Assembly (NCBI RefSeq): GCF_964213995.1
Contig: NW_027590156.1
Location: 496,001 to 560,000 of the forward strand
DNA length: 64,000 bases
Source: Mustelus asterias
Lineage: Eukaryota
Direction of reading: 5' to 3'
In this document: positions 21,772 to 36,732 of the stretch, piece after piece
How the letters are laid out: each line of letters starts with the position of its first letter
Position numbering within the stretch: the first letter of the stretch is position 1
Position numbers and translations under genes: made by a program
Notes under the pieces: generated by a model
What the model was told of the DNA's origin: nothing
Seen by the model: the letters and a program-made list of their open reading frames with translations, nothing else
Databases searched by the model: none

Positions 21772-21929
21772 GTGTCTAATTAGACGTTGTGTTGGCTCAA
21801 CCAGAGGCAGAAACCGGGCGTCCCTGAGGCTCCCTGAGACTGACCTGTAAAGCCATCGCGTGGCTTTACCCATGGCAGCAACTGGGTGTCAAGGTCCGAC
21901 AGGTCCCTGGACAGTGTTTGTAGTGTCTT
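21772..21929 (+). pseudogene. IgM VH pseudogene fragment (FR1-CDR1-FR2)
   Basis: GACGTTGTGTTGGCTCAACCAGAGGCAGAAACCGGGCGTCCC-TGA-GGCTCCCTGAGACTGACCTGTAAA...GTCCGACAGGTCCCTGGACAG = [22 protein letters not shown]...VRQVPGQ; stops, frameshift, no leader, truncated by CR1. Confidence 0.92.
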
Positions 21930-27948: not shown

Positions 27949-29339
27949 AGATGCTTCCTGTCAATAACTTTGAGCATTTGACAGCAGGCTGGATTGCTGC
28001 CAAACAATGTGTGGGACAGATTAGCGTGAACGTGAAGGACAAAATGGCATTCAGCCATTTAAACAATAAATGTTTCATTCCCACAAGAAAGGCACATTTT
28101 AAATCGTACTCATTCTATTCAAATATTTTCATTCACTGTCCTGTTCATTATGTGAGTAAATAGTATCGCAAAACAATAAAATGACCAGGTGGTTTTTCGT
28201 TTGTATAACTTCCAAGTAAATGCCATTCCAATAATTATAAATGAAATGCGAGAGAGAGATGTTGATGTTCCCAATTCCCCGGTCAATTGAGATCAGAGCA
28301 ATGGCAAAAATGCATCGAAATAATATTACAAGAACATTATAAAACTGACATGAAAAGCGAGGATTGCTGGAATATTCCGAAAGTTCTGTATCTCATTTAA
28401 ACAGCAGCGTCTCTTGTCCCTGATTTACACCGTGTTCTATTGTACAGTATAATCTGATTTCCATTCTTGAAGAGTTCCTCTCATAGCTGCCAATGAGTGG
28501 AGAAATGATCAGCTGATAACCTGATTCAATGGAAGATAATCCATTTATTCTTGTGATGTTTTGCAATGTGCAGCAAAGCCCTGATATCTTGTGTTCCCAA
28601 CACCAGCGAATGTTAGACAGCCGGTGGCCAATAGAGTGAGCTGCCACGATTTGGATGCTGAAGGAGAACTTTAATGATCTCCGTGTTCGTTCCGATTCAT
28701 TAACTTCTCTGTCAAAAGTCGATGTTACTTTTATGTTTCTCTGTCAACTCACTATTTAATTATCAGGAAGGCGGGATTCTTATTATTTTCAAAGGGCTGT
28801 CTTCGAGATTGGGGAAGTTTGACAAATATAAGGAGAAACATTGTATTGTGTGAGAGTTTCTTCTCATCTCCAATCCCAAATTGTACAGTGATAGCCATCC
28901 GCACTGTAAACGCAATCACTTTGTTCATACCTCGCATTTCGTTACAGAAATCGATAACAATTCTTTTGATCAATTATGCTTTATTATTGTGATGTGACAG
29001 AGACTCGGAATTGTTGCAAAATAGACTGACGGTCTCCTTATTTTCCAAAAATGTTATTTCAGCATTTTTAGATTTGTATTCTACTTGGGGGCGTGGTAAT
29101 AAAATCACCATATTTACAATTGAATTCGTTTTTTAAATAAAGAAATGATGAACTGCAATATCACCATCAGAAATAAGGGGAACAATACAATGAACATATT
29201 CAGCCAAACAAATATCCCGACACAGACAAAATGTCCATTTTAATATTAACGTAATGGGAGTCCATTCTGTTGGGTGTGGAAGGTGGGACGTGGATCCAGT
29301 CACCGCCTCCAGCAGGGAATCAACACGCGGCGCCGTAAA

Positions 29340-29367
29340 GCCGCCCCCTGCTGCAGGGTATTTAAAT
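29340..29367 (+). promoter_or_regulatory. VH core promoter: TATA-like box TATTTAAAT (29359-29367) preceded by a CTCF-like motif
   Basis: ~90 bp 5' of the leader ATG; GCCGCCCCCTGCTGCA is the reverse complement of TGCAGCAGGGGGCGGC. Confidence 0.6.
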
Positions 29368-29457: not shown

Positions 29458-29503
29458 ATGAGGTCGGCGATTTCTCTCAGTTTGTTGCTGACTTTCTTAC
29501 CCG
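29458..29503 (+). CDS. IGHV: IgM heavy-chain leader exon (MRSAISLSLLLTFLP-G)
   Basis: ATG, hydrophobic signal peptide, phase-1 donor G|GTGAGT, 134-bp intron. Confidence 0.95.
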
Positions 29504-29637: not shown

Positions 29638-29942
29638 GTGTCCAGACGCAGGTTGTGTTGACTCAGCCAGAGGCAGAGACCGGGCGTCCCGGAGGCTCCC
29701 TGACACTGACCTGTAAAACCAGCGGCTTCGATCTTAGCAGCTACTACATGTGTTGGATCCGACAGGTTCCTGGGCAGGAATTGGAGTTGCTGTTTTGGTA
29801 CTACACTTCATCTGGCAACTACTACGCCCCAGCAATTAAGGATCGACTTACTGCGTCCAAAGACACTTCAAACAACATCTTCTCTTTGGAGATGACGAGG
29901 CTGAAGACCGAAGACACCGCCATCTATTACTGTGCAGGGGAT
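29638..29942 (+). CDS. IGHV: IgM VH gene segment
   Basis: TTTTTACAG acceptor; [97 protein letters not shown]; open frame. Confidence 0.97.
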
Positions 29943-29981
29943 CACAGCGAGAGGAACCAGGGATGGACCCGAACAAGAACA
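29943..29981 (+). other. VH 3' RSS, 23-bp spacer
   Basis: CACAGCG-23 nt-ACAAGAACA. Confidence 0.92.
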
Positions 29982-30350: not shown

Positions 30351-30431
30351 AGTTTTTGTGCGGGTGTGTGTCACTGTGATAGGTACAGTGGGTCACAGTG
30401 CAGAGCACAGCGACATCCTCATGCAAAAACC
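30351..30431 (+). other. DH1 segment (coding 30379-30393, ATAGGTACAGTGGGT) with 5' 12-RSS and 3' 22-RSS
   Basis: AGTTTTTGT-12-CACTGTG | D | CACAGTG-22-GCAAAAACC; the typical shark D1 12/22 arrangement. Confidence 0.95.
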
Positions 30432-30744: not shown

Positions 30745-30772
30745 AGTAATTGTCATGCTGTGTCTCACTGTG
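30745..30772 (-). other. 12-bp-spacer RSS 5' of the (D)J segment
   Basis: AGTAATTGT-12 nt (CATGCTGTGTCT)-CACTGTG. Confidence 0.88.
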
Positions 30773-30825
30773 ATACCACAGCATGGGCTACTGGGGAAAA
30801 GGGACCATGGTGACGGTGACTGCAG
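30773..30825 (+). CDS. IGHJ: JH segment with D-like 5' extension (probable germline-joined D2-J): YHSMGYWGKGTMVTVTA
   Basis: WGxG motif, donor G|GTAAG at 30825/30826, directly abuts a 12-RSS. Confidence 0.93.
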
Positions 30826-33239
30826 GTAAGAACCATGCATTTATTTAGTAAGTGTTTTACTTGAGTTTTTGTTTTATCTTTTTTCGCGGTTTTATTAAAT
30901 CACTTGTTCACTGAAATGTGGTTTGGTGGATTCGGTGCTGAAAACCTTTAAAATGTTTCATGTGAAACTGCTTAAAATGGGGATTATAGAATTATACTGT
31001 TAATTGACAAAAGGTGATGCTGAATGATTCAGTCTCTGCTTGTTGTGATTTGGTATTTATCACCTGAGGACATTGTGTCGCTGGGTTACTTCATATGCCA
31101 ATCTTCTGTTAAACAGTTCGCCGTTTCCGCAATGTTTAATCTCGGTGACATCTGGTGGCTGCGAGTTGTACCATCTACTGCACAAGTGTTTGAAATCTAA
31201 CCCAATATTAACAAAATGTGGTAACGTTTCTGCATTAATGTTATGAACATGTTAATCACAATGCTGGTTTTGTTATGTCATTGTTGTGTTCACTAATTAT
31301 TAGTTACTTTAGTGAAAGGCGGATTGGCTGGATTTTAAATTGAGATTTTCTGCCCATGTGAAATTTGATTTTGTTGAAACTGCTTGTACAATTGAACTGC
31401 TTCTGCATGAAGCGGGGTTCAGTCCCTTCGTGGTGCGTTTTTCTTCTGAGGATGTTGTCTGTCTGGGTGACTTTGAATAAGTATAATTTGTGAAATGGTC
31501 TGGCGATTCTGCATTGTTTACACTTGGTGACACAGAGCTGTTACACGTTTTGTGATTGAAAACAAAGTCTGCGGGTTTTAACCTACTTGACGTGTGCCTG
31601 CAGACAGAAATCAGGCAGGCTTAATTGTATTTGTATTTTTTTAAAATCGTAAGTGATAATTGCAGGTTAAACTAAACCACGGTTTACGCTATTCGTCCAG
31701 AACATAGTTTGCCACTGCATTCACAATTTGGGATACATGCAATGTTTTACCTCTGTGGCACCTGACACCTGCAGCGTTAACCATCCAAATGTTTAAATAT
31801 GTTTGAAATCTGTTTGAAATATGACCCAATATGAATAGAATGTGGTAACGTTCCAATATGAATTTGTTGGACATATTCCACCTCCTCGCAATGCTTGCTC
31901 TTATTCCAGATTTCTGTTTAGTTTAGTCATTCATACATTTGGTGACGAGTTGGTTTGCTGGATTGGATATTGAAATTTTCTGGCAATGATATTTTGGATT
32001 TTGTTGAATGCATAATTGAGCTGCTTCTCCGTGAAACAAACTCATTCCCTCATTGATGTGTTTTGGTGTGTTTCTGTTGAGGAGGTTCTGCGGTTTGGTC
32101 ACTGAATGTTTAAACTGTGTGAAATGGTTTGTTGTTTCGGCATTGTTTCTGCATTGTTTAAACTCGGTGGCACTGAGCGGTTACACGTTTTCTGGTTGAA
32201 TGCAAGCAATCTATGAGTTTCAGAATCCTTGTAGGGAGAAAACTAGCAGGTTCTAAAAGAAATAAAATAAAGATGTATAGCATTTTTATAAATGTTAACT
32301 AACGTTTACAAATTAAAATAAATCATGTTTTACAACGCTCAATCGGACACTAAGTCGTTGCTGCAATCGCAAACTTCTCATTAACAAGTTTGAGAGTAAA
32401 ATTAGTATCAATCAAACAATTATTAATCGGTAATATAACTCCATATTCACCAAAGATTATTTTACATTAGTATTTCGCATTAGTCGGCTTTGATAGTTCT
32501 GCTATGCTTTGCAAAGTCGAAGGGAGTATTGAAATGAATAACAGTTTAATTGAAAGGAGGTTATTGATTTTCTGTTGTTGTAAGTTGATCATTGATCAAT
32601 TTGAATCAAACCGTTTGAATGAAATTGACAGACTGAACAGATCTGTCTGCTGGGCACTCGACTGTTGCACCGTTTATGCCTGTTCTGTTTCTGTGCGCGT
32701 GGTCACTGTATTGGGACCAGGAATCTGTTCCTTCACCTGTATTTCAGGGAGTGAAATTTGATTTATTTCTTCAATAAACTTGTATCTGTGAGAAATGTGA
32801 CAGTTTGACTCGATGTTTGACTCGGCGCCTCAGAAATATCATTCTTAAAGCATATTGTGACCATCAGAGAGAGCAGAAACTTCAGACAGACTGTAGAAGG
32901 AGATTTGGTTGATTTTTAGCCAGTGATGTACCGGCCTTGGGAATGTTCGATGGGCAAAAGCAAAGGAAGATTTACTGTATAGTACTCCATACCGGAGCAG
33001 TCCCTGACTTGTTCAGTAGGACAGTTGAAGAGTCAAATTCGTTTGCATCTTATTTTTAATCTTCTAAAGACATTTTAGAGTCATTTGGTTGGCAATAATT
33101 TCTAATTTTCCCTAATTGCTCCTTCAGAAAGTGTTGATATGAAATATCCTTGATAAACTGCAGTCCATGAGCTGCAGCCATCCGCCGTGTCGTTAGGCAG
33201 CAAGTTCCAGGATTTTGACCCAGCAACTGTAAAGGAATG

Positions 33240-33560
33240 GCGGCATGGTAGCACACGGTAGCACAGCGGTTAGCACTGCTGCTTCACAGCTCCAGGGTCC
33301 CGGGTTCGATTCCCGGTTCGGGTCACTGTCTGTGTGGAGTTTGCACATTCTCCTCGTGTCTGCGTAGGTTTCCTCCCACAGTCCAAAGATGTGCGGGTTA
33401 GGTTGATTGGCCAGGTTAAAAATTGCCCCATAGAGTCCGGGGATGCATAGGTTAGAGGGATTAGCGGGTAAATATGTGGGGGTAGGGCCTGGGTGGGATT
33501 GTGGTCGGTGCAGACTCGATGGGCCAAATGGCCTCCTTCTGCACTGTAGGGTTTCTATGA
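33240..33560 (+). mobile_element. tRNA-derived shark SINE nested in an old LINE fragment (~33060-33900)
   Basis: GGTAGCACAGCGGTTAGCACTGCTGC...GGGTTCGATTCCCGG. Confidence 0.85.
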
Positions 33561-34044
33561 TTTCTATAATGTTTCAAGTCAGAATGGCGTGTGCCTTGGG
33601 GGGGAGCTTGCAGATGGTCGGGTTTATATGTGGTTGCTGCCCTTGTCCTGCTCGGATGTAAAGGCAGTGGGTTTGGACAGTGTTTTCTATGGAGTCTTGG
33701 TGAGTTGCTGCAGTGCATCTTGTATATAATACACACTGCTTTCACTGCTTGTTAGTGGTGGAGAGAGTAAATGGAGTGAATGAGGGGGCGAATAATCTTG
33801 TGCGTCACTTTGTCCTGGATTGTGTCCAATTTCTTGAGTTTTTACAAGTTTCGCTCATTGAGGCAAATGGAAATTATTCAATTGGAATTGACTTGTAAAA
33901 GATTTAAATGTTTTCCAACCCTTGGCCCGCGGTCCGTATTGTGTTCACTTGTCACTCCCACTTACTGCGAGAGTGGTTGAGGATGTGAGTGGAGTGTGAG
34001 GGTAAGGCTGACTTTCGAGACTGATTCAGCCAGATAGAGACGTA

Positions 34045-34532
34045 CATATATCACACACTCTCGCACACATAAATAAACTCATGCACACTCTCATATACTC
34101 TCACATATGTAAGTACATGCTCACACTCACTATATCTCTCACACGATCTCTCTCATACACCCACACACATTCTCTCTCACACACATTACACATACAGTCT
34201 CTCACACACAAATATATAGATACACTTGCTCTCTCAATCAATCTCTCACACCCCCATTCACGAAAGCACTCACACACCCACACATTCTCTCTTACACACA
34301 GACACACACTTTTACATAAGCAGTCTCATGCTCTCTTTCACGCACACTCACATGCACTCTCTCACACATACTCGGTCACACACGCTCAAACTGTCTCACA
34401 TTTATTGACACAAGGTCTCTCAATATTCCTCTTGCATCTCTCTCTCTGTCACACACACACACGCACATATTTATTTCTCTCTTTCACAACCTTTCTCACA
34501 CATGGACATTCTTGCTCTTACAAACACTCTCA

Positions 34533-34568
<36 letters not shown>

Positions 34569-34605
34569 CACACACTCTAACACACACTCTTACACACAGA
34601 CACTG
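34045..34605 (+). repeat. Degenerate (CA)n/(CT)n tract
   Basis: Direct inspection. Confidence 0.9.
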
Positions 34606-35794
34606 TGTAAGAGGAATTTTCTGAAGGTGATTCCCCTGAGGTGCTCTGTACTTGTTGAACCTCACTCAACAGATACATAGTGTGCGAAAGACAGTATATA
34701 GTTAAAGAACGAAAAGGAAGTTATTTGCTGACGCTTGCTTCAGGAGAGACACAGTCAATAAGGGTTGACTATCATCTATGACCTAATATTGCAAGGTAAA
34801 AATATTATATTGTTCTGAACATTTCAATATCCTGCGTAGTCTCATCATCAGACTGGAGGGCCGAATCACAATATTCAACAATATTACCTTCGCCAATAAC
34901 GTTCCACCTGCCAACAGGAATTGGAGCTTATCAGCTTATTGCCCATCTAGGTTCATTCCCCTTTACCTAGGAAACCTAACCCACATCATTACAAGTAACC
35001 AAGGCCATACCATACATCTGTGATTTTTAATTGGTGAAAGGAGTCACTCTTTTGCTGGAACCTTCGCCTCATTTATCAGCTTGAGAGACTGCTACAGCCT
35101 GGCTATTTGGACAGCATTTGGACAAGTGGGGATCGAGGAGCCCAATAAAAACTGGAGTGACTAAGAATCAGGGGGAAACTCTTCTCCGTTCGGAATCATA
35201 TTTAGCACAAAGCAAGATGGTAATAGTTGTTGGCAGTCAAACATCTCAGTTCAGATTTCACTGCAGGAGTTCGGCAGGAGAGTGTTCTGGGACCAACAAT
35301 CCTCTACTGCTTCAGCAATGACATTTCTTCCAACATGAGGTCAGAAGTTGGGACTTTCATGTGTTACACAGGATGTAAAGCACAATAAATAGGGAAGGAC
35401 TTGGCTAAGACTAATGCCGATGGCGTGCCCAATACTGGTGTAAACTTGGTGTTTGATTTCTGTGTGGCCCATCCTGGTTTTGCTGTCGGCTTCCCTTCCA
35501 GCTCCCTCAGTCTGTCTATTTGTTCACTGACACGGGTTTCTTAAAGAAAGGCATCGACATTAAAGCATCTGCCCAGTGATCTACATTGCTGCCTGCTTTA
35601 CACAGCCCTGTTATTGAAAGCTGATCAATGTTAAGAATCAGGACAAGATCGATGGAGAGGAAGAGGAGGAGGTGGAGCTGCTGGAGCCGAATGGAGGAGT
35701 CCCCGACTAGCTGTGGACAACAGGCAACGGAAAGCTGAGCCTGAGGAAAAATCATCTGGAGAATCATTCAGATAATGGGACTAGAGTAATTGTG

Positions 35795-36620
35795 AATGAT
35801 CACTGACCCACTGTTACTGACCGACCCTACTTATTTACCCTCACTGAATCACTCACTCTCACTCACTCACTCACTCACTTACTTACTCCCATTAATTGCT
35901 ACTGACTCACCATCACTCACTCACCCTCACACATTCACCCGCACTCACCTAACCTCGCTCGCTCACACCCTCACTCACTCAGCCTCACTCACACTCGCTC
36001 TTTCGTGCAAACTAACTAACCCCCACTCACCCAACCTCACTTATTCTCACTCACAATCACTCATCCTCACTCACCCTCGCTCACACTCATTCATTTTCAC
36101 TGTCATTGACCCTTATACCCTCACTCACTTATACACTCTCAATTAACCTTACTCACATAGCCTAATTCACACTCACTCAATCACTCACTCACCCCACTCA
36201 CCCCCATTCACTCAAACAACATCATTCATTCATCCTCACTCATTTACGCAACCTCACTCATGCTAGCTAACACTGACACTCACTCATATGCACTCATCCT
36301 CAATCACCCTCACTCACACTCACTAATTGTCTCTCACCCTCACTCATTCACCGTGGCTCACCCATTTCCACGCACTCACTGGCTCACCATCATTCAATTA
36401 GCCTCACTCAATTATCCCCACTCCCTCAGCATCCATCAATCACTCACTCACCTAACCTTACTCAACCTCACTCACACACTCACACTCTCTCACATTCGCA
36501 TCCACTCTCATCAACCCATCCTCACTCACCCTAACTCACTCACCCTGACTCACTCACCCGGGCTCACTCACCCGGGCTCACTCACCCGGACTCAGAAACA
36601 CTCACTCACCCTCTCTCATC
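35795..36620 (+). repeat. Degenerate (CACT)n tract
   Basis: Direct inspection. Confidence 0.9.
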
Positions 36621-36732
36621 CTGAAGTGAGGTCTGAAGACGGAGTGATGCCCAACTTCAGGAGCATGTCAATGGAGTGAGAGAGGTGTAGGGAAGCGCCG
36701 GGGGTTCTGGGCCAGGGAAAACGTCAAGTAGC

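Follow-up and report, generated by a model that had tools for sequence, protein, structure and literature searches.

Elasmobranch IgM is encoded in miniclusters of the order L-V-D1-D2-J-Cμ1-4-secretory tail-TM with 23/12-22/12 recombination signals (PMC4279169, PMC2435157), and in sharks, some clusters are partly joined in the germline (PMC4279169). For heavy-chain-only antibodies, the absence or modification of CH1 has been described as the first requirement (PMC3149040; also PMC2150980), and in mammals BiP holds CH1 until the light chain displaces it (PMC2150980). The heavy-chain-only IgG of camelids (PMC3149040, PMC12168134, PMC2150980) carries a VHH set in framework 2 (FR2) that consists of Y/F37, E44, R45, and L/G/F47 (PMC12168134). 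In type I IgNAR V domains (VNAR), an FR2 Cys and an FR4 Cys are bonded to two Cys residues of CDR3 (PMC12907318). The single-domain IgM Cos5 of ratfish lost CH1 and duplicated CH2 (PMC3149040, PMC2150980). Finally, an engineered autonomous human VH (PDB 7jwb) combines Leu47 with Gly35, Arg39, and Glu45, but keeps Gly44.

Organisation of the IgM cluster

The window, i.e. the complete stretch of 64,000 nucleotides from Mustelus asterias analysed here, contains a complete shark IgM minicluster (L-V-D1-joined D2J-CH1..4-TM), with open frames throughout and introns that are all of the GT-AG type. Unless noted otherwise, its parts lie on the forward strand. The leader exon (29458..29503; ATG at 29458) has an intact GT donor and is followed by the exon for the second leader part and VH (29638..29942), which encodes a V of 98 amino acids with an open frame and a full-length CDR2. 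The V ends in YYC-A-G-D, with Gly94 at 29937..29939, and is followed by a 23-RSS (29943..29981) with a family-typical nonamer (52/54). D1 (30379-30393) and its signals, a 5' 12-RSS and a 3' 22-RSS, occupy 30351..30431. D2 and J are already joined (30773..30825; YHSMGYWGKGTMVTVTA); both segments are trimmed, and the join includes bases that look non-templated. V and D1 are unjoined, and the signals for the two remaining joins are present. As in the partly joined miniclusters described, one join has been made; its type, D2-J, also occurs in the loci L026 and L027. The 5' 12-RSS of D2 (30745..30772, reverse strand) carries a private T>A exchange in its nonamer at 30749 (1/56) of doubtful effect. 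We did not count this exchange as a lesion, since A or T is allowed at this position (PMC12711392), and it is probably tolerated.

The constant region starts with an open CH1 exon (38555..38854), flanked by an intact AG acceptor and GTAAGT donor. Its N-terminal VSSC cysteine, the residue used for the bond to the light chain, is the same as in the paralogs and in the Triakis and nurse shark chains. CH2 (39197..39511) is open, with one Cys changed to Trp in common with the L057 cluster. CH3 (40536..40835) contains private Glu and Ser changes, and CH4 with the secretory tail (41664..42055) is open and has the penultimate Cys. The membrane form is encoded by a cryptic donor within CH4 (41991..41999), an open TM1 exon (45536..45663), in which the membrane-proximal Trp is replaced by Arg as in the L057 cluster, and a TM2 exon (45802..45810) that ends in IK-stop. 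The cluster therefore has the layout of shark IgM, V-D-D-J with 12/23 signals, four Cμ exons, secretory tail, and TM exons, with D2-J pre-joined. None of the lesions of a classical pseudogene (stop, frameshift, lost GT or AG) is found in L, V, D2J, CH1-4, or TM1-2. The cluster belongs to the family of shark IgM clusters and would work like conventional IgM. The window also harbours, ~8 kb before the V (21783-21920), the remnant of a VH that is disrupted by a stop and a frameshift; many clusters are preceded by relics of this kind.

The cluster is a mosaic. Its V exon is 92% identical to that of L003, 89% to L050, and 84-86% to L057 and L059. Beyond ~33.5 kb, most of the DNA is 83-93% similar to the clusters L057, L059, and C131, compared to 65-85% for L003 and L050. 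The CH3 exon belongs, together with six loci (L122-L127), to a minority IgM constant subfamily whose CH3 is only ~65% identical to that of the main family: it is 80-87% identical to these six loci and at most 68% to the other 95 matches. We infer a past exchange within the J-CH1 intron, which may be the reason why this copy has no close twin. Within this intron (30826-38554), the nearest paralog switches from the main to the minority family before ~33.5 kb, near a SINE-like insert (33240-33566).

Distribution of the framework changes

The span of the V from 29751 to 29798 carries Cys35 (TGT, 29751..29753), Glu44 (GAA, 29778..29780), Leu45 (TTG, 29781-29783), and Leu47 (TTG, 29787..29789). Position labels follow the Kabat convention; up to position 67, sequential and Kabat numbering coincide in this V. 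The initial annotation had described Cys35, Glu44, and Leu47, a retained Leu45, 'CAG instead of CAR' at the V end (the letters being amino acids), an intact CH1 with its N-terminal Cys, and the lack of a partner Cys in D1 and DJ. Each of these observations agrees with our reading: codons 35, 44, and 47 start at 29751, 29778, and 29787, and neither the three forward frames of D1 nor D2J encodes a Cys. From these data, the annotation had suggested that the VH may pair poorly with light chains or act as a single domain, and had named drift under relaxed selection as equally possible. Its description did not include two further private framework changes, Phe49 (29793..29795) and Leu67 (29847..29849; Phe in 87/90 loci), each present in one of the best 90 of 150 V-like matches, nor an FR4 exchange from Gln to Lys (1/76 loci) and a private exchange that affects the splice donor for the membrane form.

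Within the same genome, a search yielded 150 V-like matches. The best 90 were tabulated and another 20 were inspected; the remaining 40 are low-scoring fragments or TCR/IgW-like. Near-identical duplicates are frequent, and the 77 other V loci of equal length include only 56 distinct ones. By eye, the V of the paralogs L018 and L019 agrees with a database protein named as Mustelus asterias. Among the best 90 of the 150 matches, position 35 is occupied by His (25), Tyr (23), Gly (20), Asn (14), Ser (5), Arg (2), and, in the window only, Cys. At position 44, 83 loci have Gly, three each Glu and Ala, and one Arg; position 47 is Trp in 84 loci, with three Leu and three Phe. In the same comparison, Ile37, Gln39, and Leu45 of the window V stay VH-type, and Gly94, found in 4/90, is nothing special. 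Glu44 and Leu47 occur together in the window V alone (1/90 of these best matches), and its FR2 DNA haplotype is present once in the assembly. Both remaining carriers of Leu47 are defective genes: in L089, Cys22 is missing and J is frameshifted, and L090 contains a stop. The 20 further V hits include no Cys35, two extra copies of the broken Leu47 genes, and one copy with Glu44 and Trp47.

Glu44 with Trp47 is found in L050, L077, L194, and one catshark VH. Trp47 is replaced by Phe in three loci, all of them with CH1, and by Cys in another catshark VH. The window V protein is 77% identical to Triakis IgM and 75% to a horn shark VH, and among 28 database homologs, several of them from outside the sharks, we found neither Cys35 nor Leu47, and Glu44 with Leu47 in 0/28. 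A dedicated V repertoire with VHH hallmarks is therefore not apparent, with the E44+L47 pair in 1/90 of the best loci, 0/20 of the further V-like hits, and 0/28 database homologs. Cys35 and the Cys35/Glu44/Leu47 combination are private to this copy, an outcome that the initial annotation had itself named as speaking against its single-domain reading.

Three observations concern other loci of this genome. L186-L193, L195, L199, and L200 form a divergent VH-like family with the FR2 motif WYRHSP(E/G) and Gly46, ~50% identical to IgM V. L020, L021, and L044 are near-identical Trp47Phe clusters, each with a CH1 match nearby, that show three join states (V-D-D joined, D-D joined, and unjoined), which reflect either joins made recently in the germline or somatic ones that entered the assembly. 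At L159 (G000:C71, ~9058000-9058300), a TCR-like V follows the TM exons of an IgM cluster at a distance of ~8 kb, a placement that is expected because IgH-TCR linkage has been published (PMC12227049).

Origin of the changes and strength of selection

All odd codons are single-base neighbours of a paralog codon. The TGT of Cys35 is one step from GGT (Gly, 12/89 paralogs) or AGT (2/89), the GAA of Glu44 from GAG (Glu in 2/89 paralogs, L050 and L077, both with Trp47), and the TTG of Leu47 from TGG (84/89 paralogs); likewise, TTT at position 49 derives from GTT or CTT and CTT at position 67 from TTT. Glu44 was likely inherited from the tolerated GAG variant, and Cys35 would have arisen from Gly at a hypervariable position and Leu47 from Trp. 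Two other sources were considered and rejected. Hypermutation, germline or somatic, is rejected, since private changes are equally dense inside and outside the V, and the tandem changes at codons 35 and 44 are only apparent: a single exchange leads from GGT to the former and from GAG to the latter. For Leu47, a gene conversion by the L089/L090 family is unsupported, with flanking codons that differ.

Of 50 terminal branches, that of the window copy is the second longest, and the private changes of this copy are spread evenly over coding and non-coding DNA. Compared to 34 representative paralogs, strictly private bases occupy 59 of 1723 non-coding sites (3.4%) and 6 of 305 sites of the V exon. 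The private framework replacements (positions 44, 47, 49, and 67) affect 4 of 161 replacement sites (2.5%), with 5.5 expected at the non-coding rate. Their number needs no special cause, because it matches the background divergence (Fisher p=0.65). Three of these four replacements fall into FR2 (p=0.026) and two on hallmark positions (p=0.014), both values being post hoc; this concentration is mildly non-random. Four rare framework residues were counted in the window copy and nine, the most of 38 loci, in L050. These top two are both main-family carriers of Glu44.

The changes might also not belong to the germline at all, but derive from the mutated chromosome of a lymphocyte or from a low-coverage consensus. 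The cluster is present in one copy only, though many clusters appear twice in the assembly, and its D2-J join could be somatic. Nevertheless, we consider such an artefact extremely unlikely. V and D1 are unjoined, the exons are free of homopolymer frameshifts, and the private changes reach from upstream of the promoter as far as the exons and introns of the constant region, 10 kb away, a spread that exceeds the range of hypermutation. The haplotype was seen in none of four DNA-type and four presumed-RNA runs (in X21, sampled at ~4%, 0 of 223 reads were at 99% or more, and 29 of 30 had G at 29788), but none of these runs is known to be from this species, and they do not count as evidence.

We then have to ask if the cluster still encodes a protein. 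A recently silenced pseudogene, for which no protein was ever made and all changes are neutral, would account for framework replacements that accumulate at the non-coding rate. It would also fit the signs of wear outside the V. The cryptic donor for the membrane form was located with a catshark gene model, via its KSS-DSTD junction; the mechanism has been described in mammals (PMC3570791). Its -1 position is G in 30 of 31 motif matches of the examined loci (26 distinct other loci) and A in the window only, where a private G>A exchange at 41993 constitutes the single genome-wide match of this variant. According to a duplex-energy estimate with the U1 5' end, pairing to U1 drops from -5.5 to -1.9 kcal/mol, so that the exchange is predicted to weaken the donor. 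Two core-looking CH3 changes each occur in 1/30 loci. Upstream of the TATA box, a private deletion has removed eight bases near 29254, and other changes of this region are likewise private. This block, within 29250-29360, belongs to an otherwise conserved stretch. Moreover, the sister minority-family locus pair (C131, C71:11.8 Mb) is already reduced to CH3-CH4-TM with a CH4 frameshift.

Against silencing, the 1707 coding bases contain no stop and no frameshift, while 1.5-2.6 stops and ~2-5 indels would be expected had the whole branch been neutral; the latter estimate is scaled from private non-coding indels (5 in 1.7 kb, 1 in 0.8 kb). Furthermore, the constant exons carry 19 changes at 1098 replacement sites versus 14 at 321 silent sites, a ratio of 0.40 (p=0.009). 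This replacement deficit is weakened by the fact that 11 of the 14 silent changes are from G/C to A/T, and by the CH3-CH4 intron, which, with 16/808 (2.0%), is near the replacement rate. Because of the open frames and the ratio of 0.40, the cluster is not long-dead, and we regard its recent silencing as possible but rather unlikely. Taken together, selection on the cluster appears to be present, but weak or recently lost. Of the two readings of the initial annotation, drift under relaxed selection is thus the better supported one, given that the framework rate equals the non-coding rate, but it has to be qualified by the frames that were kept open.

Probable light-chain dependence of the cluster

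With respect to the known single-domain systems, the window V shares Glu44 and Leu47 with camelid VHH, but has Ile37 and Leu45 where VHH has Phe/Tyr37 and Arg45, i.e. two of the four positions of the tetrad (F/Y37, E44, R45, G/L/F47) agree. It is also a single copy without a gene family or a Cys pair, and its CH1, which is absent or unspliceable in the VHH type, is open with AG and GTAAGT intact. Like type I IgNAR V, it has an additional Cys that directly precedes the conserved Trp, and we assume that Cys35 occupies the exact position of the extra VNAR Cys. It differs from that type in its Cμ constant region, in the lack of Cys in FR4 and the D segments, and in a full CDR2: its 98 amino acids align to IgM VH without the gap that the loss of a conventional CDR2 would leave. 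The ratfish Cos5 is likewise a cartilaginous-fish IgM cluster with an altered V, but the cluster of the window has not lost CH1. Leu47 is common to 7jwb as well; the top rank of this structure comes from three tandem copies, and with 78 bits per domain it scores lower than a conventional VH (83). Differences from the elasmobranch miniclusters are the private Cys35, Leu47, Phe49, and Leu67, the minority-type CH3, and the weakened membrane donor.

An incipient heavy-chain-only IgM would be a V that folds without VL, J-to-CH2 splicing that skips CH1, and a Cys35 that pairs with a CDR3 Cys made at the junctions. The exons are phase-compatible for such splicing, and Glu44 and Leu47 match VHH residues, being the exact residues of one hallmark set (Y37 E44 R45 L47; PMC12168134). 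Precedents exist in the CH1-less ratfish IgM (PMC3149040) and in the removal of CH1 in light-chain-deficient mice (PMC2150980). Still, we judge this reading very improbable for a gene in which acceptor and donor of CH1 are intact, Ile37, Gln39, and Leu45 are unchanged, and D1, D2J, and FR4 provide no germline partner Cys, and whose changes are private to a single copy and no faster than background. The single-domain function suggested by the initial annotation is thus unsupported: the changes are private, only two of four hallmarks are altered, CH1 is intact, and Cys35 is partnerless.

A different candidate for CH1 loss was found elsewhere in the assembly. At G000:C71:17395100-17404800 (L171-L172), with a second copy at G000:C221:352700-362400 (L175-L176), an in-frame, germline-joined VDJ with the FR2 EQRLELLIY (Arg44, Leu47) is followed ~8 kb downstream by CH3 and CH4 with a secretory tail. 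Neither CH1 nor CH2 is detectable in the 8 kb between VDJ and CH3, and the 19 kb downstream yielded no TM exon. In both copies, V codon 6 is a TAG stop. There are also related copies of the V alone (C71:9509111, C108:725053) and of CH3-CH4 alone (C138:901587, C112:865127), which overlap in a common 360-base stretch, and the locus could be a defunct IgM without CH1 or have been fused by chance. It is a more promising lead than the window V. Both loci can be combined into one reading, in which the window IgM is at a first step to light-chain independence, with FR2 partly camelised, CH1 spliced out, and Cys35 awaiting a CDR3 Cys, and the VDJ-CH3-CH4 locus is the dead relic of an independent attempt. 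We give this combination very little credence. If true, it would represent a heavy-chain-only IgM in a shark and a snapshot of FR2 change preceding CH1 loss; our search of the literature for heavy-chain-only IgM found the ratfish Cos5 and no elasmobranch case.

The V changes could instead have been selected in a variant that is still paired but specialised, e.g. for one light-chain isotype or for secretion. For this, a dedicated H-L pair has been described with IgM1gj (PMC4279169), and the open frames, the purifying signal in the constant region, and the FR2 clustering would be in agreement, as would membrane-form changes (donor, TM Trp>Arg) beside an intact secretory tail. Such a specialisation nonetheless seems quite improbable for a single copy that has a counterpart in none of the 28 database homologs and still faces two rearrangement steps, which we infer would normally need the membrane receptor for selection.

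The window gene is therefore probably best viewed as a conventional, light-chain-dependent IgM copy under weak selection and not as a single-domain antibody. This copy, with its main-family V and minority-family constant region, would have escaped the homogenisation that keeps paralogs alike, and its drift would have taken place under weak selection. Once V-D1 and D1-D2J are joined, its chain would need a light chain. A poorer light-chain pairing of the VH is plausible, but Glu44, Leu47, and Phe49 would at most narrow the set of fitting light chains, since a chain without its partner would be retained on BiP through CH1. Cys35 would contribute a free thiol, presumably at the bottom of the binding site; Leu67 is presumably remote from the surface that faces VL. 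With the weak donor, less surface receptor would be made, and together with the FR2 changes, this would lead to a cluster that is rarely selected, relaxing constraint further. In a family of ~90 clusters, two VHH-like residues can arise by single-base drift, and FR2 hallmarks alone therefore do not identify single-domain antibodies.
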